From: Candidatus Omnitrophota bacterium
GTDB taxonomy: Bacteria > Omnitrophota > Gorgyraeia > Zapsychrales > Fredricksoniimonadaceae
NCBI GenBank assembly: GCA_044225175.1
Contig: JBGAJA010000006.1
Location: 65,049 to 129,048, forward strand
Length of the DNA: 64,000 nt
Direction: 5' to 3'
Shown: piece after piece, positions 15,725-32,285 of the stretch
How positions within the stretch are numbered: position 1 is the stretch's first letter
How the letters are laid out: the number at the start of each line of letters is the position of its first letter
Position numbers and translations under genes: made by a program
The notes under the pieces: generated by a model
Told to the model about the DNA's origin: nothing
Database searches by the model: none
Seen by the model: the letters and a program-made list of their open reading frames with translations, nothing else

Positions 15725-16111
15725 ATGACAATGCCCCCATCAAATCCTATTAAGATATTAGTTGTTGATGATAAGAAGGTGATCCAAGATTTCTTCGAGA
15801 TTACTTTAGGTTATTATGGTCATTTGATTACTGGAGTCCAGGATCCTCGTCTTGCAACCAAGATTGTTAAAGAACATTCTTTTGATATTGCCTTCATTGA
15901 CATGGTGATGCCGGAAAAGGAAGGCGTAGAAGTCTTAAAATCACTTAAAGAAATTTGTCCTACACTGCCTGTAGTTATGATGAGTGGATATTCCATTCAA
16001 GAAAAGAAGGATGAGGCCCTACGTTTAGGGGCCATGGGTTGTCTTAAGAAACCTTTTGAGTTAGAAGATGTTAGAAAAGTAGTTAAACAAGTGATTGATA
16101 GGGATCTATGA
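15725..16111 (+). CDS. Single-domain response regulator (CheY-like receiver, no output domain)
   Basis: KILVVDD … DIAFIDMVMP (the phospho-acceptor Asp) … MMSGY … KKPF. The ATG at 15725 has an AGGAG RBS. The upstream part of the track ORF overlaps the kinase and is probably not translated. Confidence 0.75.
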   Translation: MTMPPSNPIKILVVDDKKVIQDFFEITLGYYGHLITGVQDPRLATKIVKEHSFDIAFIDMVMPEKEGVEVLKSLKEICPTLPVVMMSGYSIQEKKDEALRLGAMGCLKKPFELEDVRKVVKQVIDRDL

Positions 16112-16866
16112 GCACTAAAAACACTGTATCTGATTTACATTTAGATTCTTCTGAAAGAACCCTTCTTCATGGAGAAATTATTCAAAATAAAGTTTTCTTA
16201 AGAAAGCTATACATTGATTTTTATCGACGATTTCAAAAAGTAATCAAAGATCTTCCATCAAATGGATGTTACGTTGAGCTAGGTAGCGGAGGAGGATTCA
16301 TTAAAGAAGTTCTGCCTCGCGTCATCACATCTGATGTAATGCCTCTTCCTATGATTGATCAGCAATTTTCTGCACTTCAAATGCCTTTTGCTTCAGAAAG
16401 TGTCGATGCATTTATGATGATCAATGTTTTTCATCATATTCCTAATGCAGAGCTATTTTTGAAGGAAGCAAGTCGATGCCTTAAAAAAGATGGAAAAATT
16501 ATCATGGTTGAGCCGGCCAACACACCTTTTGCACGATGGATTTACCAGAATTTTCATCATGAAGATTTCGATGTTAAAGGGGAGTGGTTCTTTGAATCAA
16601 AAGGGCCCTTATCTTCGGCTAATGGTGCATTGCCTTTTATTGTTTTTTTGCGTGACCGACTAGAGTTTACAAAGAAATTTCCCGAACTCAGAATTACAAA
16701 AATTGCACCGGATACGCCATTTCGTTATTTGCTTAGCGGAGGGTTATCTTCTAATTTTTCAATGCCGGGATTTTCGTTTGAATTCTTTAGTGCGTTAGAA
16801 AGAGTATTGACGCCAGTTAATCCTCTGTTGGGGATGTTCTACACGATTGAAATTACAAAAACTTGA
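16108..16866 (+). CDS. Class I SAM-dependent methyltransferase
   Basis: Motif I VELGSGGG and motif II/III regions (…DAFMMINVFHHIP…KKDGKIIMVEP). Confidence 0.6.
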   Translation: MSTKNTVSDLHLDSSERTLLHGEIIQNKVFLRKLYIDFYRRFQKVIKDLPSNGCYVELGSGGGFIKEVLPRVITSDVMPLPMIDQQFSALQMPFASESVDAFMMINVFHHIPNAELFLKEASRCLKKDGKIIMVEPANTPFARWIYQNFHHEDFDVKGEWFFESKGPLSSANGALPFIVFLRDRLEFTKKFPELRITKIAPDTPFRYLLSGGLSSNFSMPGFSFEFFSALERVLTPVNPLLGMFYTIEITKT

Positions 16867-18274
16867 TCTTCTTCATCGCAAATCCACACATCTTAAAGAG
16901 TAATAATCCATGCCTGAATCGTTGAATTTGCGTTGTACCGTATTGACGGTTCTTGTAGCGGATAGGAACTTCAACAACCTTAAGATTTTGTTTAATGGCT
17001 CCAAATATGAGGTCAAAATCACCAAAGGGGTCAAAATCACCGAAATAGTGTCGATTGGCAGCTAGTTCTGTGTAATGGTGCCGTAAGATGACCTTCGTAC
17101 CACACAATGTATCTTTGAATCTCTGCCCTAGAAGCCAGCTGAAGAATAGTCCAAAGAATTTATTAGCAATCAGATTTAAGAAACGCATGGCTTCATCTTC
17201 CATAGGATAAACAAGTCTACAACCATTGATAAATTCTCCCTTACCAGTTTGGATTGCGTGATAGAACTTAGGTAATTCTTCAGGGGGTACGGTTAAATCT
17301 GCATCTAAAATCATCAGAATGTCACATGTGGCATGGCTAAATCCTAAGCGGACCGCGTCACCTTTGCCTTTGCCTTGTTGCCTAAAGAGTTTGATGTCCT
17401 TATGAGGATATTTTGACATAACACGCTCAACTTCTTCATAGGTCCCATCCTTAGAATGGCCTTCTACAAAAATAAATTCCTGATGTTTTCCAAATTCAGG
17501 AGTACGTGTTATGGCCGATTCAATATTTCCTTTTTCATTACGACAAGGAACAAGGATCGTTACAGAGTAGTCTTGTCGTAGCTCTATCTGGGGGCGGGCA
17601 ATGATAAAGTGGCTCAAAGTTAAACCATTAAATAAAGGTAGCTTGGCAAGGAACTTGTTGATTACATAACTAATACCCCAAATGTTAACAGGTAAAAGTA
17701 TGGCCCGATCTGTGCGGATATTCTCAAAGTTACTCAAGTTTAGGAAATTGATAATATCTTTTTCTGTTAGCCAATTCTGTCCAATGCGAGGAATAGTAAG
17801 GTGACACTTTTCAGCAGCTTTTAAGATGAGTTGCCATAAATAACTATGATACTCAATAATAATTCTTGTATCAGAAGTGCAGAATTTTCTTAATGAATTA
17901 AAAAAACTTTCAATATCTAAAAGATCCTCTACCAGTACAGGAAGGATGATGTAGTCAAATTTTTCTTGAGAATCAAAATGATCAATAGTGCCTTTGACAA
18001 ATTGAAGATGAGGGTATTTAGATTTTCCAAGTTCAATCATTTTTGGGCTTAAGTCAATGCCGACCCCAATAGAAGGTTCTAGGCTGGCCAATAAATCACC
18101 GGAGCTGCAACCAACAGCTAATATTTTTTTGCCTTTAGGAATAAAAAATCGGTACTGCTTTTGTCTAAGGCTCTCATAATACTTTCGCCGATGACTTAAT
18201 TTCTCATAATGATTGGCAATATGATCGTAGTGTTGTGAAATTTTTTGAAGTGTGATTTGGTCTGAGCTGCTCAT
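16853..18274 (-). CDS. Fusion protein: N-terminal SAM-methyltransferase domain plus C-terminal family-2 glycosyltransferase domain
   Basis: N-terminal motif I ILAVGCSSGDL. The C-terminal half has the GT2 signature (ILVPCRNEKGNIE… ILDADLTVPPEE). Confidence 0.65.
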   Translation of the reverse strand: MSSSDQITLQKISQHYDHIANHYEKLSHRRKYYESLRQKQYRFFIPKGKKILAVGCSSGDLLASLEPSIGVGIDLSPKMIELGKSKYPHLQFVKGTIDHFDSQEKFDYIILPVLVEDLLDIESFFNSLRKFCTSDTRIIIEYHSYLWQLILKAAEKCHLTIPRIGQNWLTEKDIINFLNLSNFENIRTDRAILLPVNIWGISYVINKFLAKLPLFNGLTLSHFIIARPQIELRQDYSVTILVPCRNEKGNIESAITRTPEFGKHQEFIFVEGHSKDGTYEEVERVMSKYPHKDIKLFRQQGKGKGDAVRLGFSHATCDILMILDADLTVPPEELPKFYHAIQTGKGEFINGCRLVYPMEDEAMRFLNLIANKFFGLFFSWLLGQRFKDTLCGTKVILRHHYTELAANRHYFGDFDPFGDFDLIFGAIKQNLKVVEVPIRYKNRQYGTTQIQRFRHGLLLFKMCGFAMKKIKFL

Positions 18275-18285
18275 ACATTCTCTTT

Positions 18286-21200
18286 TTAACGTTGATTTTG
18301 TAAACGATTGTATATCACAGAAAGAAAATAATCTACTTTGCCTTTTGGTTGAAGCTTTAATTCTTTGCTTTTCAAAGCCAATACAAAAGCTTCACGGTAC
18401 TGTCCTTTTTCTAAAGCTGTCATGGAAGCCGCAAATAGAGTTTCCGCCTGTTTTTCAGTAGAGTTAGTCAAAAGAAAAGCATCCGCAAAATCAGATGTTT
18501 TTATCAGCTCAACAGACAAAGGTTGGTCAGAGAAATCAATAGCATATTGATTGTTTATCTTTGGATTAATCAAAATGACATGGGGAAAGTGATTAAGAAG
18601 ATCATCAGCAAAGATCTTCTGCGTAAAGCTGTTAACCCCATAACCGAATGGGCGTTCGCTATAAAGATTGAAATAAAAACTTTGAGGGTATAGTGAGAAA
18701 AGCTCTGAACTTTCTTTAAAGGAGTAAGTAGGGCTTAAAAGGAATGAGAAGTAAGAATTGGCAAACAATAAGGCAGAGTTTTGGTCGAAGAATATATTTC
18801 GATCAGCCGTTGTCATAATAGTTGCTCCGGGATATTGGGCATACAGTTTCTTGTTAAAAGTCAGGATATGGTTTGTTAAGCCTGACAATTGAGTACGGAA
18901 TAACATTGTGTGAATAATGGTTTGAAGACCAAATACCAGAATCAAGACGATCGTTAATCGGATGAAGATTTTCTTTTTGGTTAATTGCTCTAAATAAAAT
19001 ATGGGAAGGATGATGCTTAATAAGCAGATTCCAGGGATCAGATAGTGAGGGGAATAATGGCTTATTGTGATTAGGAATACAAATAAGACACAAGCGTTTA
19101 ATGCCCATAAGAATTGTGCGCTTCGATGGCGGTAGTTTCGAAAGAGTTTAATAGAACTCCAAAGCAATATTCCACCGGTAATTAGTAAGATCACGCAGTA
19201 AGTCCACAGGATTTTATTAAAGAATATACTTAGAAAATGTGGTGCATCAAGGACTCGAGGCCCGCCAAAAAGCAGATTGCCTGAGAATATTCCAATTGTC
19301 CATTTCCATAAAAGGGGGTATTGCGCATAAATCGGAATGGTCCATACAAAAAAAGACATGATAGTCATGCCTATAAAAAGAAGCTTTTTCTTCCACGGGA
19401 CCATGAGGAAGATAAAAATAAATATAGCAAGAAAGTTTAACTTGGTAGCTATGCCTAAGCCAGCGACTAATCCCAAGAGCAATGTTCCTATTAACTCTGC
19501 TTTTGGAGTTCTCGCATAAAATAGAATACATATGGCTATGCCTAGTAAATTGATGATGCTTATTAATAATGGTTCACAGCTAATATTGGCGCTAATAGGA
19601 AGAGTTGCTAAATTGGAATCCAGGGATTTGATGGTCAAAAGAAATAGGCCTGGGATTTGACTTAAAATTGCGGCAATTTTATTACGTGTTTTATAGAAAA
19701 TGTAAGCTGCCAGGGCAGATGATGTCAGAAAGACCCCCAGCACTAAAACAATGTGGATGGCATGCAGATAATATTCAGGATTTAAAAGTACATTATGGAC
19801 TGTATCTGTAATGGGGCGCCCTAAATTTAAGACGCTGATGACACATGCATACAATAATTGAAGTGGAGTCCCAGGATGATCAATATGGGTGATACTGATG
19901 CCTTTTAGAATATGAATTCCATTAAAAAGATAAACATAGCAAGGATCAGCATATTGCCAAAAAGGTCCTGCGGCAGATCTTAAAAGAAAAGATAATAAAG
20001 CAACCACGCAAGGGATTATAAAAACAAAACTATAAGAAGCTAATGTTGAAAGAATGGGATGAGTTCTAAGTTGAATCTGCTCGATAGAATTTTTATAGGA
20101 CCATCTTCGTCCAAAATCCACGATCGGTTTTTCAAAGTACATCCAAGAGAGTTGGGCACATACGATTGTCATTAAGAATGCACCGATCGTTGTGAAAGCA
20201 TCTGTCCATTGAAGAATTTGAGGCGAACTTTGATTTAAAAATAGAGCATGCATCACCCCAGAAATACCCTGATGAAACAAGTACATGCCGTAGGCAATGA
20301 TTCCTAAGCGGACAATCCAAGGATTACGTACAACAGCTGTAATGACTCCTCGTTTTTCACAGAGAGCAATTAACAATACACACGCATATCCGAAGGCCAG
20401 CAACGAATAGCCATACCACACCATATTCTTTGATAGGACGTTTTTGTCTTTGCACATAATGGCAAATACACAAGCAAAGATGATGGCGGTTGTGATATAC
20501 AACAACGGAATACATCGATGAATTAGATTTTTAATAGTCTTTTTACGCAACAGGAGAGCACATAACACCCCAATCATTAAGGCATCCATACGAGAAGGCA
20601 TCATTAAGAAGCCCCAGAACTCACCATGAGGGACATTGGAGAATAAAAGCATTCTCAACACAGGAGCTGAAAAGATCAGAAAGACAACAACATAGGGTAA
20701 GCTGCGTACCGAACAGGCATAAATCAAAAGGGGAAGGACTAGATAGAATTGTTCTTCAACAGCTAAGGACCAAGTTATTCCAAGCCAGGGGCTTCCCCAT
20801 TCATTAATATTGGCCATAGCAAAATTCTGTGTAAAAGTTAAATAATAAGCAAGGCCAATAGATTTAGGGTCGTTGATAAATGATTTTAAATGAGGATTGA
20901 TCGATGGGAAATGAACAATAGCCCATGTGATCACTTGTAAAAGGAGAATCCATAAGATATAAAGCGGTAATATTCGACAAAAACGACGAATGTAAAAGGT
21001 CTGAAAGAAATTGGTTGCGTGTTTATTATTTAATAAGATTCCACCTAATAAAAATCCAGAAAGCACAAAGAACAGATCCACTCCGCTCCACGTTAACCAT
21101 AAGCATTGATAGATTGTTAAAAGCCAGGGAGTCGAATTGATTTGATCAAAAACGGGGCCTTTTTGGATTTGACAGACGACATAGTGCCAAATCAACACTT

Positions 21201-21294
21201 GAAGAATGGCAAGGCCTCTTAGTCCATCCAATTCAGGGATACGAATTGCAGCAACAGAAATAGATTGATTGAAATCTTTAAAAAATTTAATCAT
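18286..21294 (-). CDS. Fusion: N-terminal acyltransferase-3 (OafA/YrhL-type) domain plus a C-terminal ~600-aa polytopic membrane domain. The C-terminal domain is paralogous to the next two genes and belongs to an unrecognised GT-C-like family.
   Basis: AT3 hallmarks: LDGLRGLAIL…H, GVDLFFVLSGFL, FYIRRFCRILPLY. The C-terminal domain starts at …AAGPFWQYADPCYVYLFNGIHILKG and ends with a TPR-like tail (…TEKQAETLF…ALKSKELKLQPKGKVDYFL…). Both regions align with the ORFs at 21298-23037 and 23043-24800. Confidence 0.6.
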   Translation of the reverse strand: MIKFFKDFNQSISVAAIRIPELDGLRGLAILQVLIWHYVVCQIQKGPVFDQINSTPWLLTIYQCLWLTWSGVDLFFVLSGFLLGGILLNNKHATNFFQTFYIRRFCRILPLYILWILLLQVITWAIVHFPSINPHLKSFINDPKSIGLAYYLTFTQNFAMANINEWGSPWLGITWSLAVEEQFYLVLPLLIYACSVRSLPYVVVFLIFSAPVLRMLLFSNVPHGEFWGFLMMPSRMDALMIGVLCALLLRKKTIKNLIHRCIPLLYITTAIIFACVFAIMCKDKNVLSKNMVWYGYSLLAFGYACVLLIALCEKRGVITAVVRNPWIVRLGIIAYGMYLFHQGISGVMHALFLNQSSPQILQWTDAFTTIGAFLMTIVCAQLSWMYFEKPIVDFGRRWSYKNSIEQIQLRTHPILSTLASYSFVFIIPCVVALLSFLLRSAAGPFWQYADPCYVYLFNGIHILKGISITHIDHPGTPLQLLYACVISVLNLGRPITDTVHNVLLNPEYYLHAIHIVLVLGVFLTSSALAAYIFYKTRNKIAAILSQIPGLFLLTIKSLDSNLATLPISANISCEPLLISIINLLGIAICILFYARTPKAELIGTLLLGLVAGLGIATKLNFLAIFIFIFLMVPWKKKLLFIGMTIMSFFVWTIPIYAQYPLLWKWTIGIFSGNLLFGGPRVLDAPHFLSIFFNKILWTYCVILLITGGILLWSSIKLFRNYRHRSAQFLWALNACVLFVFLITISHYSPHYLIPGICLLSIILPIFYLEQLTKKKIFIRLTIVLILVFGLQTIIHTMLFRTQLSGLTNHILTFNKKLYAQYPGATIMTTADRNIFFDQNSALLFANSYFSFLLSPTYSFKESSELFSLYPQSFYFNLYSERPFGYGVNSFTQKIFADDLLNHFPHVILINPKINNQYAIDFSDQPLSVELIKTSDFADAFLLTNSTEKQAETLFAASMTALEKGQYREAFVLALKSKELKLQPKGKVDYFLSVIYNRLQNQR

Positions 21295-21297
21295 GAA

Positions 21298-23037
21298 TTA
21301 CTTCGGGATTTTGTTATAAATGAAAGCCAGCAAATATTCGACCTTGCCCCGCGGCTCATATTTTAAATCTCTACTTTTTAATGCCAGAGCAAAGGCTTGT
21401 TGAAAATCGCCTTTTTGCAAGGCCGCTTCAGCGAGCGATAAAAGTTCATTAGCTTGCTTTTCTGTTGATCCAGTTAATAGATAGGCATTGGCAAACGATG
21501 ATTGGTCAATCTTTTTAAGCGTGTAGGCAGATTGTTCGATATCTGTATTAGAAAGAAAAATGACGCAAGGATAGTTAGCAAGTAAATCTTCTCCATAAAC
21601 TCGTTGTTGAGAATCCCATATTCCATAGCCATCGTATTGGTCTTGAATGATTTTATCTGGATTAAAGTAATAAGCATGAGGGGAAGCTTTTTTTAGTTCT
21701 TCGTTCTCATGATGAAGAGCATATCTATTGCCAAACAGCAGGGCGTATTCTTGGTTAAGGTATAGGGAAACAAGATTGGAGTTAGAAGCAATCACTGTGC
21801 AGTTAGGGTATTGGGAGTAGATCCGGTCATGAAGGCCCATTGTATCATTTGTCAGATTTGATAAATTGTGATGATACATCACCGCTTGAGTTGTGGTTAC
21901 AATCATGAACAATGGCACAAATGACATAACTAGTTTATTAGCTAGTTGAGTCTGGAACAGACGATTAATGCTTAACAAGAATAGGATGGGGCTGGTAGAA
22001 CAGATCCCTAAGACTAAATAATGCCATGAGAAATGTTTGGCAATAATACCAAAATGTAATAATGTCCCGATACATGCTGCCCATAAAAAAAGAGCATTTT
22101 TATTAGTGCGGTCCTTGATGAATTGAATCGAACTTAAAATAAAAGCTCCTAGAGTTATCAAAACGAAGAACCAATGTTGAGGAAAAATATCTTTGAATAA
22201 ATGGGAGGCGAAGGTATTCCAGTCAACTACCCCTGTTGTACCTGAGCCGAGGGCGCCTGTGTGAGTGACAATGCTTTGAGCCCATTGCCATACTAAAGGA
22301 TATTTAGAAAGTATAGGTAATGTGCAGATAAAAAATGATACAAAAGAAACAGTCATCAGAATAAGTTTCTTTCGTCCTGGGGTCACAATGAGGGCTGAGA
22401 TTAAAAATGTAAAGAAAATTAGTCTTGTAGACAGGCCAAGACCACAGACAAGGCCCATAATCAAGATCCATTTTATTTGGGAAGAAGAATCCTTTGCAAA
22501 ATATAAAGCCAAGAAGCATAAAGTAAAAAGATTAACAATACTTATTAATAAAAGCTCAGGGTTTACATTCGCACTGATAGGTAGGATTGGAAGGTTTGAG
22601 GCGTTTGATTTAATGATTAATGCACAAAGCCCAGGCAGTTGTGTTAGCAGTGCAGCCCATCTATTGCTGGTTTTGTGATAAATATAAACAGCTAATAAAA
22701 CATAGGTTACAAAAGTTCCTAGAATTAACAGAAAATGAACTGCCTGAAAATAGAATTCGGGGTGTACTAAAGCTCTGTGGATAATATCTGGAGTTGAAAG
22801 GCCGATATTAAAGATCCAAATTGTAATGAGAATTATCAGTTGAAGAGGAATACCTGGATGTTGAATTAGGGTGGGAGTGATGCCCTTAAGCATATGAAGC
22901 GCATTAAAGTAGTAAATGTACGAAGGATCGCAGTATTGCCAAAGAGGTCCTCCTGCACTCTTAAGAAAGAAAGCCAAGGTGATAATCACTATGGGAATGA
23001 TTAGTGCAAAACTATATGTTTTTAATAATTTCAGCAT
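21298..23037 (-). CDS. Polytopic membrane protein, paralog 2 of the unrecognised GT-C-like family (membrane domain plus C-terminal soluble TPR-like tail)
   Basis: N-terminal …SAGGPLWQYCDPSYIYYFNALHMLKGITPTLIQHPGIPLQL…. C-terminal …AYLLTGSTEKQANELLSLAEAALQKGDFQQAFALALKSRDLKYEPRGKVEYLLAFIYNKI. It is clearly homologous to both neighbours. Confidence 0.55.
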   Translation of the reverse strand: MLKLLKTYSFALIIPIVIITLAFFLKSAGGPLWQYCDPSYIYYFNALHMLKGITPTLIQHPGIPLQLIILITIWIFNIGLSTPDIIHRALVHPEFYFQAVHFLLILGTFVTYVLLAVYIYHKTSNRWAALLTQLPGLCALIIKSNASNLPILPISANVNPELLLISIVNLFTLCFLALYFAKDSSSQIKWILIMGLVCGLGLSTRLIFFTFLISALIVTPGRKKLILMTVSFVSFFICTLPILSKYPLVWQWAQSIVTHTGALGSGTTGVVDWNTFASHLFKDIFPQHWFFVLITLGAFILSSIQFIKDRTNKNALFLWAACIGTLLHFGIIAKHFSWHYLVLGICSTSPILFLLSINRLFQTQLANKLVMSFVPLFMIVTTTQAVMYHHNLSNLTNDTMGLHDRIYSQYPNCTVIASNSNLVSLYLNQEYALLFGNRYALHHENEELKKASPHAYYFNPDKIIQDQYDGYGIWDSQQRVYGEDLLANYPCVIFLSNTDIEQSAYTLKKIDQSSFANAYLLTGSTEKQANELLSLAEAALQKGDFQQAFALALKSRDLKYEPRGKVEYLLAFIYNKIPK

Positions 23038-23042
23038 TGATA

Positions 23043-24800
23043 TTATTCCTTTTGAATGTGCGGGTAGATCAAGCCAAGGTAATATTCAACCTTACCTCGT
23101 GGTTGGAAATTGAGTTCCCTGGCTTTTAAGGCTAACGCGAAAGCTTGTTGATAGTTGCCTTGTTTTAATTGATTCAAAGCTCCTAAGAAAAAGTTCTCTG
23201 CTTGTTTCTCTGTTGAATTAACGAGTAAATAAGCTTGGGCGTATTTAGATTCTTCGATTGGTTTGACAATAAAAGGGTATTGTGAGAAATCAGAATTTAA
23301 TTTAAGAAAAATACTGCAAGAACCTGCATTTAAAAGATCATCAGCATAAATTCTTTGTCCTTTGAAATTTCTAATGCCATATCCATCATCATAATTTTCT
23401 GGCCGGGGCTCTGTTTGTTCGGAATTAAAATAAAATGTTTTAGGATACAAAGCGTAGATCGCTTGGTCAGCTTTATGGAGGGTGCCATAATTGCCTAAGA
23501 ATAAGCCGTGAGATTGCGTCAGGTAAATATTTGTAGCAGTGGTTGCTGAAGGAAGGATGGAGCAGTTGGGATATTGTGTATGAATTTTTCCGCGTATCTG
23601 ATCTAAGTCGTGGGTGAATTCTTTTACTTGATGATAATAAGAATAAGCCTGAAATGAGCTTTGAATGGAAATGAGTACAATAACAATTAATGTGATTCGT
23701 TTCATAAGCACACTGTGAGGAGTCAATTGAAGATAAAATAATAAGAGTATTGGGCCTAATAAAAGCAGAGAGGGAAGAAGATAGTGGAAAGAAAAATGTT
23801 TAGCTGTGATCAGGATCTGAAGAAGGCTTACCAAACAAAGGGTCAATAACATCTGGACATTCCGGTTCTTCCACTGATTCTTAATTCTTATTAAACACCA
23901 TGAAAAAATTCCAAATGTAAAGAATATTAAGAATTTGAAATGAAGTACAATTGCTGTTAAGTGTGACCAAAATTCAGTCCAATTAATCATCTCTTGTTGG
24001 CCTAATCCATAGTGCCCGGAGTGAGTGATTAGACTGATTATCCAATCAAATAGCTTTGGGTATTGAGCAATGATGGGAATGGTCCACACAACAAAGGACA
24101 GTAGGGATATCGCTATAAAAATAGGTTTGATTCTCCAAGAGACAATGAGCAATCCTGCTAAACATAGAGGAAGGAAAACGAGTTTGATCGCTAATCCAAA
24201 TCCACATACGATTGCTAAGAACACGCTGGCTTTCCATTGATCTTTGGGAGTTTGCGCAAAATATAATTTAAGAAAGAAAAGGTTAAAAAGGTTGATGCTG
24301 CTAATAAGAAATGGTTCGGGGCTAACGTTAGATACAATGGGTGTCACAGCAAAACTGGAGTCAAAGGATTGAATAGTTAGAAGACTTAAAGCGGGTAATT
24401 GTATTAATAGCGCTGCACTTAGATCGTTTGTTTTTTTGTAAATAAAATGACCTAGAAGAATAAATGTTGCCGCAGTGAGAATGGTTAAAGTGACAAATGT
24501 CAGATTTAAATAAAATTCTGGGTGAAGAAAAGCTTCATTGGTAATGTCTGTTTTGGAATGGTTAATATTAAAGAGTCGAATGATAGCTAGAATCAGAAGT
24601 TGTAAAGGGGTGCCTGGATGGGCTGTTTGTGTTGGAGAAATGCCATTAAGCATGTGAATGGCATCAAAAAGATATGTATAACAGGGATCAGCATATTGCC
24701 AAAAAGGGCCAGCAGCGCATCTAAGGAAGATTGAGAAAACTAATGTGAGAAAAGGGATAATGAGCAAGAAAGCCCATCGGAATCGGATAATAAAATTCAA
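23043..24800 (-). CDS. Polytopic membrane protein, paralog 3 of the same family
   Basis: N-terminal …AAGPFWQYADPCYTYLFDAIHMLNGISPTQTAHPGTPLQL…. C-terminal …AYLLVNSTEKQAENFF…ALKARELNFQPRGKVEYYLGLIY. Confidence 0.55.
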   Translation of the reverse strand: MNFIIRFRWAFLLIIPFLTLVFSIFLRCAAGPFWQYADPCYTYLFDAIHMLNGISPTQTAHPGTPLQLLILAIIRLFNINHSKTDITNEAFLHPEFYLNLTFVTLTILTAATFILLGHFIYKKTNDLSAALLIQLPALSLLTIQSFDSSFAVTPIVSNVSPEPFLISSINLFNLFFLKLYFAQTPKDQWKASVFLAIVCGFGLAIKLVFLPLCLAGLLIVSWRIKPIFIAISLLSFVVWTIPIIAQYPKLFDWIISLITHSGHYGLGQQEMINWTEFWSHLTAIVLHFKFLIFFTFGIFSWCLIRIKNQWKNRNVQMLLTLCLVSLLQILITAKHFSFHYLLPSLLLLGPILLLFYLQLTPHSVLMKRITLIVIVLISIQSSFQAYSYYHQVKEFTHDLDQIRGKIHTQYPNCSILPSATTATNIYLTQSHGLFLGNYGTLHKADQAIYALYPKTFYFNSEQTEPRPENYDDGYGIRNFKGQRIYADDLLNAGSCSIFLKLNSDFSQYPFIVKPIEESKYAQAYLLVNSTEKQAENFFLGALNQLKQGNYQQAFALALKARELNFQPRGKVEYYLGLIYPHIQKE

Positions 24801-24950
24801 ATACTAGTCCTCATTTATATACAAAATTTATTAATCGGGTTATGGTACTATAAAATAATATTCTTTAAAAGAATTAAAACAATCCAAAAATAAATCTTAA
24901 TAAATTCTCTAAATTACGATATTATGTCTGCAATTAATTAGTCAGAAATT

Positions 24951-25676
24951 ATGTCTAACCTCAATGGCTCCATGGAATCTTCTGTTTTAAAAACATTACA
25001 TGTTGTACGCGGTTCTCGCAGGTACAATTCATGGCTTTATGATCGTATTAAAAGTCATTTGCGTGGTTCTGTGTTAGATATAGGCAGTGGTTTGGGAGAT
25101 ATTGCTCGTCAGTTTGTGAATCCTTCCATTGATGAGGTTGTCCTCTCTGATTATGCTGATGAAATGCTCAATTTATTAACACAAAATCCTCCTCCATTAA
25201 AAAAGTACCGCATCACCAAGTTAGATATTACTAATCCTCACACCTTTAATGATTATCCAAAAGAACAAGCAGATACGATCACTTGTATTAACGTGTTGGA
25301 GCATATTCAAGATGATGTGAGGGCCCTTAAACATATGAAGAGTTTGCTTAAAAAAGGTGGCAAGGTGGTTATTTTTGTTCCCGCATTACCTGCAATTTAT
25401 GGCACTCTAGATACACATGTAGAGCATTATCGACGTTATACCAAAAGAAGTTTGGGCCGAGTTTTTAAAGAGGCAGGTTTTACGGTTCAAGATTCTTATT
25501 ATATGAACATGTTTGGTATTTTAACCTGGTTTTTTGCTGGACGTATATTAAGACAGAAGAAGTTTCACAAAAATGCTTGTCATATGTTGGATCGCATTGT
25601 GCCTTCTTTAAGGGCAATCGAGAATGTTTTTAATCCACCTTTGGGGCAATCATTAATCATGGTTGGGCAATCCTAA
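24951..25676 (+). CDS. Class I SAM-dependent methyltransferase
   Basis: Motif I VLDIGSGLGD and motif post-II …GGKVVIFVPA. It is transcribed divergently from the paralog triplet. Confidence 0.6.
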   Translation: MSNLNGSMESSVLKTLHVVRGSRRYNSWLYDRIKSHLRGSVLDIGSGLGDIARQFVNPSIDEVVLSDYADEMLNLLTQNPPPLKKYRITKLDITNPHTFNDYPKEQADTITCINVLEHIQDDVRALKHMKSLLKKGGKVVIFVPALPAIYGTLDTHVEHYRRYTKRSLGRVFKEAGFTVQDSYYMNMFGILTWFFAGRILRQKKFHKNACHMLDRIVPSLRAIENVFNPPLGQSLIMVGQS

Positions 25677-25682
25677 ATAGTA

Positions 25683-27113
25683 ATGATCTTATTTTCCAAG
25701 ATTCACTCCTTCTATCTTTTTCATGCGCAGTTAATTGAACGAATTTTGTTCTTAATTGCTATTCTTAGCGCTGTTTTAATTCGTTATTCCTTCCTCAATC
25801 GAGGATTCTTTTATGATGAACTCTTTCTCGTAACTCACTTTCTTCAATCGCCTGAGCTTTTCGGTCCTTCTTTTAAAGATTATACAACTGCTAATCATAT
25901 GGGTTATACGATCTGTTCGTATGTGACAAGTCATTTATTTGGCATGAAAGAATGGGCTGTACGTTTGCCAGCCTTATGTTTTGATATAGCAAGTATGTGT
26001 GTCTTTGGGTATTGGACAAGAAAGTATTTTGGAAGAGCAGTTGCATCGGTTGGAATGATTTTATTTGTTTTTTCTCCAGCAAGTATTATTTGGAGCTCCT
26101 CTGCACGCGGATACTCGGCAATGATATTCTTCACATTAGCTTCCAGTATTCTTTATTTTCGTCTGCTACAACAAACTTCCAAAAGAACGCTGTTTTTGTT
26201 CATAGTTACAAACCTTATTGGGTTTTCCTTCCATTTGTATTTTGCTTTTATCGAGATTGTTCAATTGTTTCATTTGGTATTGTTAGCTTTTGCCAGTAGT
26301 CGATTAAACATATCTAGAAAGAATTTGGTTAATTTATCGATAGGGATGGGGATTACATGCATCTTATCGGTTCTTATCTATGCTCCGATCATGTTCAAGT
26401 TTCTCATGCAGCAAACAGGTGTACATGGGGAATTGATTCCATATTTTCCTTTGAAAGTATTTACAGATTTAATATCTGTCTCATGGTTGCCCTTAGGATT
26501 AATTTGTTTGATTGTGATGATTGTTGGATTTAAATATTTTAATCCCAGATTAGTGTATTGGCCCGTCTATGTTTTATTGTTATTCTTGATTCCATTGCCC
26601 ATTTGGTTGTCGAAACCATGGTTTTTATATCCTCGTTTCTTTTCTTTCTTATTGCCTTTTATTTTTCTTGGACTTGCCAATGGGATGGTCATGATTCCCA
26701 GGCTTTTTCCAAAGCCTTTTCAAATCATCCTTGGACTATGTATGGTGGCAGTCCTATGTGCGATTCTGTGGTCTTGGAAGAACAACTCTGCGAATGTCGT
26801 CCAAGAATTCAATAGCACTTTTAAAGAATCTGTGGCCTTTGCTGAAGGTATATCCAATAGTCAGGTGCGCTTTTGTTCATTTGGGAGTGAAGATCAGTTT
26901 TTTCAATATTATTCCAAACGGCCAGTCATTCAATTTAAGACTTTTGAAGAATTTTTATTATTTTATAATCAGAAGATAGATTCTTTGTGTTTTGCTATTA
27001 TGGGACCACCGATGAATGATGAACATAAGAAGATTTTTCTCTTTATGCTCACGCATTCCCAATTTAAATCTTTTGATAAAATTAATGTGTTTCATATAGG
27101 TGAAAGGCTGTAG
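25683..27113 (+). CDS. GT-C membrane glycosyltransferase, GT39/GT83 (PMT/ArnT)-like
   Basis: First-loop acidic motif …FFYDELFLV…, then …WAVRLPALCFDIASMCVFGYWTRKYFGRAVASVGMILFVFSPASIIWSSSARGYSAM…. This is typical of the ArnT/PMT 4-amino-arabinose or mannosyl transferase fold. Confidence 0.5.
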   Translation: MILFSKIHSFYLFHAQLIERILFLIAILSAVLIRYSFLNRGFFYDELFLVTHFLQSPELFGPSFKDYTTANHMGYTICSYVTSHLFGMKEWAVRLPALCFDIASMCVFGYWTRKYFGRAVASVGMILFVFSPASIIWSSSARGYSAMIFFTLASSILYFRLLQQTSKRTLFLFIVTNLIGFSFHLYFAFIEIVQLFHLVLLAFASSRLNISRKNLVNLSIGMGITCILSVLIYAPIMFKFLMQQTGVHGELIPYFPLKVFTDLISVSWLPLGLICLIVMIVGFKYFNPRLVYWPVYVLLLFLIPLPIWLSKPWFLYPRFFSFLLPFIFLGLANGMVMIPRLFPKPFQIILGLCMVAVLCAILWSWKNNSANVVQEFNSTFKESVAFAEGISNSQVRFCSFGSEDQFFQYYSKRPVIQFKTFEEFLLFYNQKIDSLCFAIMGPPMNDEHKKIFLFMLTHSQFKSFDKINVFHIGERL

Positions 27114-28757
27114 ATGATTATTGTTATTCTTTTAGCGCTCTTAGGTTTGCCTTTATACTTTGGTCTTTTTAGCGAGCATATTGTGGGTGGTCATGATGCA
27201 GCATCAGGGCTAATCAGAGCTATTTGCATGGATAAATATTTGGGTGATGGGCAGATATTGCCTCGTTGGCTTCCAGATGTTAATTTTGGCTTTGGTTCTC
27301 CAATGTTCAACTTTTATCCTCCGTTTTTCTATTTTTTATCTGTTGTACTCTCTAAAGTTACGCACAATATGCTCTTAGCTATGAATTGGGTTTGTATTAT
27401 TCTGTGGATTGTTTCAGGGATTGGCATTTATTTGTTAGCGAAAGAATTTTGGGGGCGTAAAGGTGGGTTGGTATCGGCTATTGCCTACATGTATGCTCCG
27501 TATCATATCCAGGATCTTTATGTTCGAGGAGCTTTTGCGGAATTTAGCGCATTTGCATTTTTTCCTTTGATCATTTTAGCCTTTTACAAGATTAGTAAGA
27601 AAATTGAAGTGAAATATGTCGTACTGGGGACGCTGGGTATTACTTCTTTAAGTCTTACTCACAATGTGATGAGTATGCTCTTTCTTCCAGTCTTGATGTC
27701 ATATATTGTTTTCTTATCGATCTTAAGAAAGAATATTTACATTTTTTTGTTTAATTTTGCAATGGTTGTGGTGGGGCTCATGATGGCTGCCTTTTTTTGG
27801 TTGCCCGCATTTAATGAGAAGAGTTCTTTAAACATGCTTCTTTTGGTCCTCTTTCATTATGATTTTCATCAGCACTTTCTTTCTTTAGCTCAATTGTTTA
27901 ATACTCCATGGGCGGTTAATCCTGAGGATCAAACAAAGTTGCCTTATCATGTAGGATTGTTTCCTGTCATTTTAGTGGTGGTTTCTTTAGGTCTTGTGAT
28001 TAAAAGGTTCAAAGAAAATAAAGAGATGTCTCTGCATTATCTATTTTTTCTTTTTGTAACTATTGTCGCTATGTTGTTTACTCTGCCCATTACTGAGATC
28101 ATTTGGGAAAAAGTCATTTTATTAAGATGTATTCAATTTCCATGGCGTTTATTGGCGATCATCAGTTTTTTTGTCTCGTTAATGGCAGGTGGAATCATGC
28201 TCATAAATAAATCAAAAGTGGTTAGTAATTTTATTCTTATTGGAGTCATGATTGTCATTATGCTTTCATCCGCGAAATTAATTTCCAGCATAAAGTTTAA
28301 GAATATAGATCAAGTTAAGATCAAAGAACACCTTTCTGAGCTTACTTTTTTGGGAGAAGGTGAATATACTCCTCGGTGGATTATGAAAGTGCCAACATCA
28401 AAACTGCCAGACAAATTTATGTTCTTACAGGGTAGTGGAACTCTCACAGAATATAAAAAGATTAATGCTGTAGAGCACACTATACGTGTGATGTCTTTTC
28501 AACCTGCCATGTTATGTTTTGGTTCTTTTTATTTTCCAGGATGGGAAGCTTTTATAGATGGTAAGTCAACGCCTCTCAGGGCCGACAATCAATATGGGCT
28601 TGCGGTCTTTGTGGTTCCTCCTGGAGACCATCTAGTGAAAATGGTCTTTAGAACAACTCCTATTCGACAACTAGCTGTGAGGATTTCTTGGGGAGGATTA
28701 ATCTTGTTTATCATTGGATTATTTCTTATTCGAAAATCAAATTGGTCAAGATCATGA
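27114..28757 (+). CDS. YfhO/PTPS-related-domain membrane protein (predicted GT-C glycosyltransferase)
   Basis: N-terminal …GGHDAASGLIRAICMDKYLGDGQILPRWLPDVNFGFGSPMFNFYPP…. The C-terminal …FPGWEAFIDGKSTPL… is typical of the 6-pyruvoyl-tetrahydropterin-synthase-related (YfhO-like) membrane family. Confidence 0.5.
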   Translation: MIIVILLALLGLPLYFGLFSEHIVGGHDAASGLIRAICMDKYLGDGQILPRWLPDVNFGFGSPMFNFYPPFFYFLSVVLSKVTHNMLLAMNWVCIILWIVSGIGIYLLAKEFWGRKGGLVSAIAYMYAPYHIQDLYVRGAFAEFSAFAFFPLIILAFYKISKKIEVKYVVLGTLGITSLSLTHNVMSMLFLPVLMSYIVFLSILRKNIYIFLFNFAMVVVGLMMAAFFWLPAFNEKSSLNMLLLVLFHYDFHQHFLSLAQLFNTPWAVNPEDQTKLPYHVGLFPVILVVVSLGLVIKRFKENKEMSLHYLFFLFVTIVAMLFTLPITEIIWEKVILLRCIQFPWRLLAIISFFVSLMAGGIMLINKSKVVSNFILIGVMIVIMLSSAKLISSIKFKNIDQVKIKEHLSELTFLGEGEYTPRWIMKVPTSKLPDKFMFLQGSGTLTEYKKINAVEHTIRVMSFQPAMLCFGSFYFPGWEAFIDGKSTPLRADNQYGLAVFVVPPGDHLVKMVFRTTPIRQLAVRISWGGLILFIIGLFLIRKSNWSRS

Positions 28758-29467
28758 AAAGCATTTCGATTGTTATTCCAGCAAAAGATGAAGAGAAGCG
28801 TTTGCCGATTTTTCTTAAAACAGTGATTGAATTCTGTAATCGCTCTACACATTCCTATGAGATCATTATTGTTGATGATGGCAGCAAGGATGCTACAGCA
28901 TCTTTGGCACTAGAATTTCAAAAAGAGTTTTCTTCATTGAAGATCATTTCATTGGACCGCAATCACGGAAAAGGTTTTGCGGTCAAGCAAGGATTCTTGG
29001 CTTCCCATGGAGATATTGTTTTATTCTTAGATGCGGATGGTTCAACGTCACCTACGGAAATTGAGCGACATCTATATCTATTAGATCAAGAAAATGATGT
29101 GGTGATTGGATCAAGGGTTTTAAGGGATGGGCAATCTCAGGTTAAGAGTCGTTTTTATCGCAAGATTATGGGTCATGTGTTCAATTATTGTGTCTCATCT
29201 TTTTTGATCAAAGGAATCAAAGATACTCAATGTGGTTTTAAGATGTTTAAAAGTACAGCTGCGAAAAATATATTTCAGAAAGTTTATTTGGAAGGGTTTG
29301 GTTTTGATTTGGAAGTCCTATTCTTGGCGCAAAAGTTTCATTACCGCATTAAAGAAGTTCCCGTCAACTGGTCTCACGTGCAAGGAAGCAAGGTCAATAT
29401 TTGGAAAGATTCTTTACGAATGTTCTTCAATATTCTAGAAATCAAAAAATTACATAAAGATCTTTAG
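28754..29467 (+). CDS. Family-2 glycosyltransferase, polyprenyl-phosphate sugar synthase-like (DPM1/ArnC/GtrB type)
   Basis: ISIVIPAKDEE… IIIVDDGSKD… LFLDADGS…; about 237 aa and soluble. The ATG at 28754 overlaps the previous stop (ATGA). Confidence 0.8.
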   Translation: MKSISIVIPAKDEEKRLPIFLKTVIEFCNRSTHSYEIIIVDDGSKDATASLALEFQKEFSSLKIISLDRNHGKGFAVKQGFLASHGDIVLFLDADGSTSPTEIERHLYLLDQENDVVIGSRVLRDGQSQVKSRFYRKIMGHVFNYCVSSFLIKGIKDTQCGFKMFKSTAAKNIFQKVYLEGFGFDLEVLFLAQKFHYRIKEVPVNWSHVQGSKVNIWKDSLRMFFNILEIKKLHKDL

Positions 29468-30873
29468 TATGCTTTAGGGAGGCCTAGGGCATGGCGCATG
29501 TCCATCCACATGGCACGTGAAGAAGAACAGCTGTCTCCGTGGTAATTCATCAGATAATAGCGGAAGTGATAGTCGTTTTCTTGGTATCGAACCATAAATT
29601 TGACCCAGTCTTCCTTGGTCTTCGCATGCAAAGCTTCTTCTTTGGTCCAGAAACTAAACCAACCCATGCTCTCTTTAGGGTACACTGTAAAATATCCTCT
29701 TAAGAAGACGAATGCAAAGATGATCCCTGTTACTGTGACAATGATAAAGGTGGCTTGCCATCGCTGGGTTAGCATCCATAATCCATAAGCCAATAATAAG
29801 CATGAGAAGGGAAGGGCACTCACAGTTCTTAAATTGCTGGGGAGGCCCCCTTGAGTTAAAGCTGCCGGAATAATAGAAATCAATATATTAATAAATAAAA
29901 AAATAAGCCACCAATGATGCGCTCTTGTAGCTTTAAATTGAAAGATTAAGAACCCAACCAGACATAGAAGTCCTAGAATTTCAACCCAACTTAAAAGTCC
30001 AACGTGTTGGGTAGAATGTTCCCATGAGGGATCTCCCGTTACAAATAAATATTGAGGAGTAAAGTGGGAGAAATAATTCTTTAGGAAAATTTCGGACAAA
30101 TCATGAATGCTTTTGGTTTTTCCAATACTGTGAAGAAATTCTTCATTTGCGATTGAAATGCCTTTAAATCGTTCCTGTAAATTTCCAAACAAAGTACCGT
30201 GAATTAAAGGAATACAAGGGATGACCAAGGCCAAAACAAAGGCGATGAAATTCTTTTTATTAAGAGTTTTTATTTGGAATTGATAGATAAACAATGTGAT
30301 GAGAAATAAAGGAACCTGCATGCGAGCAGGAGGATAGACATACAATGCACACGCAAATAAAAGTCCCGCCCAGACTTTATCTAACACCTTTGGAGAACGA
30401 AGAAAGAAGAATAAGCCCCAAATGATAAATGTGGCACAAAAAGTAGATTCATATCCTATTCTAGAGAGATTCCAACACCACGGAGAAAGGCTTGCTATAA
30501 AAGCTCCTAAGAGACCGTATGAGGTCCCCAAGAGTAGACGTCCTACAAAGAATATGCCAATGACGGTTAAGACATTGAAAAAAGCCGTGAAGGCTCTGAG
30601 TTTATCAACGGTAGGTCCAAATATTTTGACCCATAGAGCAGCAGGATATGCGTACACAGGAGGTTTAGGAGTGCCGTAATGTTGTTCAAAGAATAAGGGA
30701 TGAGGGATGAGATGTGCATCAGTTCCCTGAGTTTCAAGGCATTGAATGCTGACTGCACCTGCCAATTCATCGACATTAAAACCATAAGGAACGTCATCTA
30801 ACCAACAGAAACGAAGGATGTTGATAACGATAATGGTAAGAATAATCAGTGCGCAAGAAATCTTTTTGATCAT
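29464..30873 (-). CDS. GT-C membrane glycosyltransferase, ArnT/PMT (GT83/GT39)-like
   Basis: N-terminal …LRFCWLDDVPYGFNVDELAGA… (the DE motif in the first periplasmic loop), followed by about 12 TM segments. Confidence 0.6.
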   Translation of the reverse strand: MIKKISCALIILTIIVINILRFCWLDDVPYGFNVDELAGAVSIQCLETQGTDAHLIPHPLFFEQHYGTPKPPVYAYPAALWVKIFGPTVDKLRAFTAFFNVLTVIGIFFVGRLLLGTSYGLLGAFIASLSPWCWNLSRIGYESTFCATFIIWGLFFFLRSPKVLDKVWAGLLFACALYVYPPARMQVPLFLITLFIYQFQIKTLNKKNFIAFVLALVIPCIPLIHGTLFGNLQERFKGISIANEEFLHSIGKTKSIHDLSEIFLKNYFSHFTPQYLFVTGDPSWEHSTQHVGLLSWVEILGLLCLVGFLIFQFKATRAHHWWLIFLFINILISIIPAALTQGGLPSNLRTVSALPFSCLLLAYGLWMLTQRWQATFIIVTVTGIIFAFVFLRGYFTVYPKESMGWFSFWTKEEALHAKTKEDWVKFMVRYQENDYHFRYYLMNYHGDSCSSSRAMWMDMRHALGLPKAY

Positions 30874-32285
30874 GTCTTTTTGGGTCGGTAAATATGTGTG
30901 CTATGTCCAAAAAAGCTTTCTGCAGTTTCCATGATAGTCTCTGATAGAGTTGGATGTGGGTGAATGGAAAGTTTTAAATCTTTCGCAACAGAACCCATTT
31001 CAATGGCAAGAACACCTTCCGCAATCATTTCTCCAGCTCCAACTCCAACAATTCCAACGCCTAAGATTCGTTCTGTTTGAGGATCAATGATGAGTTTGGT
31101 TAAACCATCTTGACGATCAAGCGTTAAAGCGCGTCCCGATGCTGCCCAGGGGAATTTAATTACTTTTACATCGCGGCCAGCCTTGAGAGCTTCACCTTCA
31201 GTTAAACCAGCCCAGGCAATTTCAGGATCGGTAAAGACTACAGCAGGGATAGCTTGTGGTTCAAAGGCAACCTTTTGACCGTTAATTGCTTCAACAGCAA
31301 CGCGGCCTTCGTGGGATGCTTTGTGAGCAAGCATTGGATCGCCTGCAATGTCACCAATAGCATAAATATTTTCATCTCCTGTGCGGCGTTGATCATTGAC
31401 TTCAACGAATCCGCGGGGAGTTACTTTAACTTTTGTATTTTCTAATCCTAAATTCTCGGAATTTGGTTTACGACCAATGGAAATGAGGACTTTGTTGTAT
31501 TCGCTTTTAAACTCTTTTCCTTCTTTGTCTTGGAAGGTGACGGCAATACCTTTAGCAGATTCTTCCATTTTTAAGACCTTTGTCTCAAGCATAATGCTTG
31601 CAAACATGCCGGTTACTCGTTTAGTTAAGACAGCAGCTAGATCAGCGTCTGCTCCAGCTAGTAAAGAAGGAAGCATTTCAACGACGGAGACCTTAGAGCC
31701 TAATTCATGATAGACAGTTCCAAGTTCCATGCCAATATAACCACCGCCAATAACAAGTAATGATTCAGGAACGGTTTCCATATCGAGTGCGCCAGTTGAA
31801 TCCCAAATGTGAGGTGATTTGGGAGCAGAAGGTAAAGTTGTTGGCCGGGACCCAGTTGCAAGAATTGCTTTATCAAAGCTAACGTCTTCACTTGTGCCAT
31901 CCATTTTCTTAACCTTAAGAGATGTAGAACTTGTAAAGGAAGCTTCACCTTGAATGTATTTGATTTTGCGTGCTTTAGCCAGTTGTCCTAATCCACCTGT
32001 CAACTTAGAAACAACGCTCTTTTTCCAATCGCGTAGTTTGTTAAAGTCCATCTTAGGTTCAGCATACTCAATACCAAAGTTCTTGGCATGTTTAGCCTCA
32101 GAGATAATTTTAGCTACGTGTAAGAAGGCTTTTGATGGGATGCATCCGCGATAAAGGCAGACGCCACCGGGATTGGTTTCTTTTTCAACGATGGTTACTT
32201 CCATGCCGATATCAGAGGCCAAGAATGCAGCGGAATACCCGCCAGGACCAGCGCCGATGACTACTAATTTGATTGGATTAGCCAT
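30870..32285 (-). CDS. lpd: Dihydrolipoyl dehydrogenase (E3)
   Basis: FAD motif LVVIGAGPGGYSAA and the redox disulfide GGVCLYRGCIPSK. The internal ATG is the likely start, overlapping the E2 stop by 1 nt (TAATG on the minus strand). Confidence 0.9.
   Translation of the reverse strand: MANPIKLVVIGAGPGGYSAAFLASDIGMEVTIVEKETNPGGVCLYRGCIPSKAFLHVAKIISEAKHAKNFGIEYAEPKMDFNKLRDWKKSVVSKLTGGLGQLAKARKIKYIQGEASFTSSTSLKVKKMDGTSEDVSFDKAILATGSRPTTLPSAPKSPHIWDSTGALDMETVPESLLVIGGGYIGMELGTVYHELGSKVSVVEMLPSLLAGADADLAAVLTKRVTGMFASIMLETKVLKMEESAKGIAVTFQDKEGKEFKSEYNKVLISIGRKPNSENLGLENTKVKVTPRGFVEVNDQRRTGDENIYAIGDIAGDPMLAHKASHEGRVAVEAINGQKVAFEPQAIPAVVFTDPEIAWAGLTEGEALKAGRDVKVIKFPWAASGRALTLDRQDGLTKLIIDPQTERILGVGIVGVGAGEMIAEGVLAIEMGSVAKDLKLSIHPHPTLSETIMETAESFFGHSTHIYRPKKT

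Follow-up and report, generated by a model that had tools for sequence, protein, structure and literature searches.

The 64-kb window analyzed here, a stretch of contig JBGAJA010000006.1 from a Candidatus Omnitrophota bacterium, carries three consecutive minus-strand genes for related polytopic membrane proteins, and the question they raise is what proteins that belong to no recognized sequence family might do. The first gene encodes paralog C (23043–24800; 585 residues, TTG start), which is composed of an 11-transmembrane (TM) GT-C_A-like module, a predicted periplasmic α/β domain, and a tetratricopeptide repeat (TPR)-like tail. It is followed by paralog B (21298–23037; 579 residues), for which a structural model was built, and by protein A (18286–21294; 1002 residues), whose C-terminal module (residues 414–1002; 18286–20055) corresponds to the other two proteins. 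An initial annotation of this DNA had proposed that they are GT-C glycosyltransferases. The evidence assembled below makes it quite probable that A, B, and C are long-diverged paralogs from an unnamed family of integral membrane glycosyltransferases with a GT-C_A fold, for which polyprenyl-phosphate sugars are the putative donors. Residue numbers are those of B unless stated otherwise, and all positions within the three genes refer to the minus strand.

The open reading frames (ORFs) lie exactly where the initial annotation had placed three consecutive homologous genes. BLASTP aligned B with C at 40% identity across 577 residues (E = 1e-140) and B with residues 414–998 of A at 39% identity (E = 2e-132), a sequence similarity far beyond chance. 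These are the only copies that a hidden Markov model (HMM) of the family found in the window, with an E value of 8e-167 for C. The three genes are separated by 5 and 3 nt, and A is followed after 11 nt by a gene for a fusion of a methyltransferase with a family 2 glycosyltransferase (GT2), hereafter MT-GT2 (16853–18274, minus strand; 473 residues). Because of these gaps, C-B-A-(MT-GT2) looks like a single operon, with C as the first gene and MT-GT2 as the last.

The suspicion that the family had gone unrecognized was borne out by every sequence library searched. B, C, and the last 590 residues of A had no Pfam-A (2025) match at E ≤ 0.1, NCBIfam 20.0 gave none at E ≤ 1 for the window paralogs, and a three-sequence profile retrieved nothing from the PDB sequences. 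Neither PF13231 nor PF02366 was matched above its gathering score by B, C, or the GT-C part of A, and the same held for PF09594 (GT87, PimE-type) and the family. Ten diverse members were likewise without a significant Pfam match. Among 85 further members the recurrent weak matches were all to GT-C families, namely GT87 in five (best E = 7e-6), PMT_2 in four, and PMT in one, with a best E value of 7e-4 for the latter two.

A word-indexed search of 5.8 billion proteins returned eight relatives, the closest of them in metagenome-assembled genomes (MAGs) of Candidatus Omnitrophota, which implied a very rare family. An exhaustive search with a HMMER profile, covering 1.84 billion cluster representatives, overturned this by finding 2,401 proteins at E ≤ 1e-3, of which 1,172 reached E ≤ 1e-30. 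The family is not rare, with about 2,400 clusters at 50% identity in at least ten bacterial lineages. A genome scan placed members in Omnitrophota, Planctomycetales, Ignavibacteria, many Bacteroidota (Prolixibacteraceae, Mariniphaga, and Draconibacterium), Verrucomicrobiota, Nitrospirales, Burkholderiaceae/Alcaligenaceae, cyanobacteria, Aminicenantes, and Gemmatimonadaceae. Every named member that was checked is labeled "hypothetical protein."

The AlphaFold model of B reached a pLDDT of 76.5 with 9 aligned sequences, and a pLDDT of 95.8 with a pTM of 0.94 when an alignment of 134 sequences was used. The model comprises 11 TM helices, of which TM3 is broken and kinked, in a TM core formed from residues 1–409 (21811–23037). 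TM1 (residues 2–29) is followed by a short turn, Asp37, a first juxtamembrane helix (JM1, residues 39–50), a second juxtamembrane helix (JM2, residues 63–75), and TM2 (residues 93–123), with Asp37, JM1, and JM2 lying in the first loop (residues 35–92; 22762–22935), which is predicted to be periplasmic. The top hit in a Foldseek search with this model was ArnT (PDB code 5F15; E = 1.9e-4, full-length TM-score 0.43–0.45). Enzymes of the GT-C_A class are built from a conserved module of seven TM helices at the N terminus and a C-terminal module that varies (PMC13503287, PMC12041299). Their first luminal loop (LL1) contains two helices, the first of which carries the catalytic base (PMC13503287), and a catalytically essential Asp is located at the tip of JM helix 1 in all GT-C_A enzymes (PMC12041299). 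The same organization is found in B, where a seven-TM N-terminal module precedes a variable C-terminal module and the first loop is modeled as two helices, with a conserved Asp at the tip of JM1. The family falls outside all of the curated sequence families tested (PMT, PMT_2, GT87, and NCBIfam) and shows the structural and positional features of the GT-C_A class. It is best read as a new sequence family, but one with a known fold and mechanism.

The predicted topology places this loop on the periplasmic face of the inner membrane. The helices of the model delimit six predicted cytoplasmic segments, in which the density of Lys and Arg across 134 members was 0.256, against 0.075 in the predicted periplasmic segments. 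Because of this positive-inside bias the N terminus is predicted to be cytoplasmic and the C terminus periplasmic, together with Asp37 and the C-terminal domain. In A, the linker between its N-terminal domain, an acyltransferase 3 (AT3) domain described below, and TM1 of the GT-C module is rich in basic residues (five Lys or Arg in 34 residues). With the ten TM helices described for AT3 domains that stand alone (PMC9558356), this linker would be cytoplasmic ahead of TM1, in agreement with the N-in orientation. The initial annotation had postulated a conserved acidic residue in the first extracytoplasmic loop and had regarded a cytoplasmic position of that loop as incompatible with a glycosyltransferase; the residue is Asp37, present in 99% of members, and its loop is predicted to be periplasmic.

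Residue conservation was assessed across 139 diverse full-length members. The motif on which the initial annotation had been built, which includes an invariant Asp-Pro, proved to be the most conserved part of the family, with Asp37 (99%), Pro38 (92%), Tyr40 (97%), Tyr42 (96%), His60 (91%), Pro61 (100%), and Gly62 (99%). Also among the most conserved residues are Thr63, Gln66, Pro93, Glu94, Tyr96, Gln133, Glu161, Gly199, Gly201, Lys205 (97%), and Pro241, and two further features are a G-x-Y-G-x-G stretch at residues 261–266, conserved family-wide, and the cluster Lys334, His335, His339, and Tyr340 (100%). Asp37 of B (codon at 22927–22929), Asp38 of C (24687–24689), and Asp450 of A (19945–19947) are the candidate catalytic residues of the three proteins; Lys618 of A is encoded at 19441–19443. 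In ALG12 and ALG3 the phosphate of the donor is bound by Arg185 in the TM5–TM6 loop and His371 in the TM9–TM10 loop, respectively (PMC13503287). In the model of B, Lys205 is found in the TM5–TM6 turn and Lys334, His335, His339, and Tyr340 in the TM9–TM10 turn, and by position these residues could be the equivalents of the ALG12 and ALG3 phosphate loops.

A relationship to known GT-C enzymes was also detected at the level of sequence profiles. When the family was aligned by hhalign with a profile of 57 homologs of the neighboring PMT_2 ("GT39 family") gene, the global alignment gave P = 3e-8 (probability 94%) and the local alignment P = 1.2e-5 (probability 81%), collinear over ~400 columns. The N-x-D-P-x-Y motif of the family is paired here with the PMT-type v-D-E motif, and DHPGT..PLQ with the following G..kpP motif, and controls with reversed sequences gave P values of 0.002–0.18. 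A 9-sequence family profile aligned with each of the three neighboring GT-C genes as single sequences gave nothing (probability <0.2%), and with these methods the likely kinship with PMT_2 is detectable only profile against profile. The neighboring PMT_2 protein itself found nothing in the PDB by phmmer, so that the residue numbers of ArnT or PMT could not be carried over by this route. Taken together, the Asp at the tip of JM1, the N-in topology, and the pairing of DP with DE support the GT-C glycosyltransferase assignment of the initial annotation.

The genes around the family point to the likely donor. Both GT2s of the window best match polyprenyl-phosphate sugar synthases, namely ArnC (E = 1e-18) and a Pyrococcus dolichyl-phosphate mannose (Dol-P-Man) synthase (E = 4e-16 and 7e-17), with GtrB, AglJ, PgfS, and PpgS among the other top PDB matches. 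The GT2 half of the MT-GT2 fusion is closest to Dol-P-Man synthase, ArnC, and AglJ, and no curated NCBIfam model reaches its cutoff with the fusion. In a neighbor survey of 81 family loci from many phyla, 42 of which have full flanks, the commonest neighbors were GT2s and S-adenosylmethionine (SAM) methyltransferases, and 38 loci had a DPM1/ArnC-like GT2 within 3 kb, which in 28 of them was adjacent (≤300 bp). Known periplasmic glycosylation combines a polyprenyl-phosphate sugar synthase, a flippase, and a GT-C enzyme (PMC11127046), and by analogy the context of the family follows this logic. Most probably, A, B, and C act in the periplasm and transfer sugars that the adjacent GT2 has attached to polyprenyl phosphate, with the decoration of the cell envelope at the outer face of the inner membrane as their most likely role.

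Several observations weigh against this assignment. The link to GT-C enzymes rests on a predicted structure and one moderate profile-profile score, and the equivalence of Asp37, Lys205, and Lys334/His335 to known active-site residues on helix and loop position and the hhalign alignment. Identity to solved GT-C enzymes is only 7–14%, and a 134-sequence profile retrieved only noise from the PDB sequences (for example Cas12f and prion protein, E ≥ 0.14). Where PMT, ArnT, and STT3 have D-E or D-x-D, the family motif has D-P. A departs from the family consensus at Lys334 (Ser745), His259 (deleted), and Gly264 (Leu675), and, given that it alone of the three paralogs combines a Ser for Lys334 with an altered 259–266 motif in the fourth extracytoplasmic loop (EL4), its function may be different or its activity lower. 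With regard to the context, about half of the loci with full flanks are without a GT2 within 3 kb (present in 22 of 42), and no recognizable flippase (GtrA, SMR, MATE, or Wzx) was found in the window.

The alternative that survives best is that the proteins are catalytically inactive GT-C-fold scaffold or substrate-binding subunits, like PIG-U/GAB1 in the glycosylphosphatidylinositol (GPI) transamidase, or subunits that bind or chaperone lipid-linked sugars for adjoining GT-C enzymes. This is unlikely, since an acidic residue at the catalytic position in 99% of members and conserved basic and aromatic residues in the loops corresponding to the ALG12 and ALG3 phosphate loops are typical of active enzymes. 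In addition, the top structural matches are active transferases, and in most genomes the gene occurs once, next to a GT2 donor synthase, without a further GT-C gene adjoining it. Slightly less likely again is that the family acts as a polymerase or ligase on polyprenyl-diphosphate-linked oligosaccharides, in the manner of Wzy, WaaL, or oligosaccharyltransferase, instead of transferring monosaccharides from a polyprenyl monophosphate. No Wzy, WaaL, or SEDS (RodA-type) protein was found among the Foldseek matches, and neither fold similarity nor a Wzy_C Pfam match places the family with O-antigen ligases, Wzy, or SEDS proteins. A transporter or flippase, for instance of the lipid-linked sugar of the neighboring GT2, that resembles GT-C enzymes only superficially would account for the lack of a recognizable flippase in the cluster and for the major facilitator superfamily (MFS) transporters in the lower Foldseek ranks, but it is very improbable, these matches being at noise level (probability ≤0.18, TM-score about 0.1). 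The transporter and Wzy/WaaL readings were rejected on the fold evidence, and the confident match to an O-antigen ligase, polymerase, or transporter that the initial annotation had named as decisive against a glycosyltransferase did not appear.

At 39–40% amino acid identity the synonymous sites are saturated for the dN/dS comparison that the initial annotation had suggested, and the paralogs were compared instead by the conservation of key residues and a neighbor-joining tree. Asp37, HPG, PExY, Gln133, Glu161, Lys/Arg205, His335, His339, and Tyr340 are common to all three. The tree, which is without bootstrap support, pairs A with P0005/P0011, B with P0002/P0003, and C with P0004/P0006, and from this grouping the duplications would be older than the divergence from other Omnitrophota-like organisms. 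One MAG has retained a tandem pair of a B-type and a C-type gene; across the family, most genomes have one copy and a few have two. The long retention of the copies with intact key residues argues, with moderate strength, for specialized and non-redundant enzymes.

The C-terminal region differs in part from its first description. The initial annotation had noted a TPR-like tail, which in B forms three helices (residues 526–574; 21316–21462), and this is a subfamily feature found in 56 of the 134 members. The tail is separated from the membrane part by a conserved α/β domain (residues 410–525; 21463–21810) that is predicted to be periplasmic and that, together with the TM core, is present family-wide (132 of 134). 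Some members carry C-terminal extensions of ~250–300 residues (P0112 with 827 residues, and P0076, P0081, and P0100 with 812–844), and one extended member shows a weak match to a CBM_4_9 carbohydrate-binding module (E = 3.6e-5), which fits a glycan acceptor.

The extra N-terminal domain that had been noted in A can now be named. Residues 20–382 (20149–21237) match the AT3 O-acyltransferase family (Acyl_transf_3, PF01757) with an E value of 2.6e-27 and 96 bits (cutoff 31), spanning profile positions 2–323 of 326. The R/K-X10-H, FFxxSG, and RxxR motifs, which are functionally essential in OafA and Oac (PMC7448272), are intact as Arg26-X10-His37, F75FVLSG, and R104FCR107 in the numbering of A. 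With the profile match and all three motifs present, the domain is a member of AT3 and resembles OafA/OafB, Oac, and OatA over the whole profile, but differs from them in being joined to a GT-C module. The architectures given in a 2022 review are AT3-only, AT3-SGNH, and AT3-alanine racemase, and AT3-GT-C is absent from these (PMC9558356). No earlier description of such a fusion or of the family was found in the literature, where coverage was incomplete and the evidence of absence is weak. Among the 150 best family representatives, A alone carries an extension ahead of the GT-C module. In a related locus (L084), an A-type ortholog is flanked by two stand-alone AT3 genes (L084:7217-8305 and L084:11851-12915), one of them 45 bp downstream. 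Another ortholog has a pair of MBOAT and GDSL-type genes close by, and MBOAT genes recur among the family neighbors. By the domain content of these loci, the family is recurrently tied to putative glycan O-acylation.

The MT-GT2 fusion is a second recurrent partner. It combines a class I SAM methyltransferase with a DPM1/ArnC/AglJ-like GT2 in ~475 residues across loci, and it was found at full length within 3 kb of a family gene in 18 of the 81 loci (adjacent in 15) from Omnitrophota, Bacteroidota, Burkholderiales, and Gemmatimonadaceae. In 10 loci both the fusion and a 250-residue Methyltransf_11 protein are beside family genes, as in the window, where the latter (16108–16866, plus strand; 252 residues) is convergent with the operon. 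Further examples of these gene types are L018:6354-7787, L018:5567-6316, and L024:9670-11118. The recurrence of the two suggests that the lipid-linked sugar donor may be methylated. A tentative extension, on balance doubtful, is that the family, the fusion, and the ~250-residue methyltransferase form a conserved cross-phylum module that would O-methylate a sugar on its polyprenyl-phosphate carrier, with the GT-C enzyme delivering it to an envelope glycan or protein; here the module would hold three specialized transferases, one coupled to AT3, that channel glycosylation and acylation. If so, this would be an undescribed type of periplasmic glycan-decoration pathway and a new CAZy glycosyltransferase family.

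By analogy with ArnT, PMT, and ALG enzymes, the following mechanism can be drawn. A DPM1/ArnC-type GT2, here the downstream MT-GT2 fusion and/or the second GT2 at 28751–29467, would load a sugar onto polyprenyl phosphate at the cytoplasmic face, and some flippase would turn the lipid-linked sugar across the membrane. The Asp at the tip of JM1 (Asp37 in B, Asp450 in A, and Asp38 in C) would then activate or orient the acceptor hydroxyl in the periplasm, with Lys/Arg205 and Lys334/His335/His339/Tyr340 holding the departing polyprenyl phosphate by its phosphate group. The three paralogs would probably add sugars at different positions, in different linkages, or to different acceptors of one envelope glycan or glycoconjugate, and the AT3 domain of A would O-acylate the same product.

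The family is distinct from each of the known systems that it resembles. ArnT has 13 TM helices, and the family model has 11, with a TPR-like cap in some members. Identity to ArnT (GT83; undecaprenyl-phosphate-L-Ara4N:lipid A transferase; PDB codes 5F15 and 5EZM) is only 11%, the family motif D-P-x-Y-x-Y...HPGTPLQ is unlike the ArnT loop motifs, and nothing points to lipid A as the acceptor. Compared with Pmt1/2/4 and the bacterial PMT_2 "GT39 family" (PF02366 and PF13231), 80 of the 85 members are without a PMT-type Pfam match, the MIR domain is absent, a Pro replaces the second acidic residue of DE, and the C-terminal domain differs. Identity to the Dol-P-Man-dependent GT-C_A enzymes ALG9, ALG12, ALG3, and PIG-M (GT22, GT58, and GT50) is 8–13%, no sequence-profile link between these and the family was found, and they are eukaryotic proteins of the endoplasmic reticulum with Dol-PP-oligosaccharide or GPI as acceptors. 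The GtrA/GtrB/Gtr* systems and ORF12 of GT136 (PPPRS plus a MATE flippase) have in common with the family a gene for a cytoplasmic polyprenyl-phosphate sugar synthase beside a GT-C gene (PMC11127046). They differ in that no flippase gene can be recognized in the window, a SAM methyltransferase is often part of the family's donor synthase, and the window has six GT-C-type genes and two GT2s where the known systems have one of each.

GT-C enzymes build or decorate lipopolysaccharides, cell-wall glycans, lipoglycans, and glycoproteins. Surface antigenicity and resistance are determined by them, with ArnT (polymyxin) and EmbB (ethambutol) as examples. Recognition of the family as GT-C gives the members of its ~2,400 clusters a testable function and points to an uncharacterized envelope-glycosylation pathway with a conserved MT-GT2 partner. 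One more GT-C family is unsurprising in itself, and the understanding of how these enzymes work stays unchanged; what stands out is the size and breadth of an unannotated family, its MT-GT2 partner, and the AT3-GT-C fusion, a natural "Rosetta stone" that joins periplasmic glycosylation and O-acylation. GT136, a GT-C enzyme without sequence similarity to existing families, gained its own CAZy family when its activity had been demonstrated (PMC11127046). The same would apply here if activity is shown, and the family merits a Pfam/InterPro entry.

The wider cluster (16000–31000) comprises six GT-C-type genes, two GT2s of the polyprenyl-phosphate sugar synthase type, one AT3 domain, and three or four methyltransferases, with three SAM methyltransferases listed besides the MT-GT2 fusion. 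An Omnitrophota relative (L001) is syntenic with the window, and L002 and L084 carry the same gene types. Gene C is separated from a divergent plus-strand glycosylation operon by an AT-rich intergenic region of 150 bp (24801–24950), presumed to be a promoter region. The plus-strand genes encode a SAM methyltransferase (24951–25676), a weakly PMT_2-like GT-C protein (25683–27113), a PTPS_related GT-C-like protein (27114–28757), and the ArnC/DPM1/GtrB-like GT2 (28751–29467), beyond which lies a PMT_2/GT39-type GT-C gene on the minus strand (29464–30873). The product of 25683–27113 is a polytopic protein of 476 residues with a sub-threshold PMT_2 match (E = 1.7e-3; 19 bits, cutoff 26) and is probably another poorly recognized GT-C enzyme. 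The longest ORF of the GT2 gene, from a TTG at 28688, would overlap the preceding PTPS_related gene by 70 nt (28688–28757), and the ATG at 28751 (MKSISIVIPAKDEE...) is the more likely start.

In L002 and L084, proteins of ~584 residues without a Pfam match adjoin family genes (L002:7467-9221 and L084:5450-7204). The family HMM, in a scan that covered L002, gave no match to the L002:7467-9221 protein, and the two may represent a further unannotated membrane family of the same pathway. Elsewhere in the window, a plus-strand ORF of 1,740 residues (36957–42179) has only spurious zero-stretch Pfam matches (Rrn6_HB and Ribosomal_L21e), and because of the unusually high GC skew around it (0.35 at 38–40 kb) it probably encodes a low-complexity or repetitive giant protein. 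A second long plus-strand ORF, with 1,352 residues and no Pfam family at E ≤ 1e-4 (49678–53736), is followed downstream by a RodA/FtsW gene and by tandem type II secretion system/type IV pilus (T2SS/T4P) ATPase genes (55856–57574 and 57587–59290).

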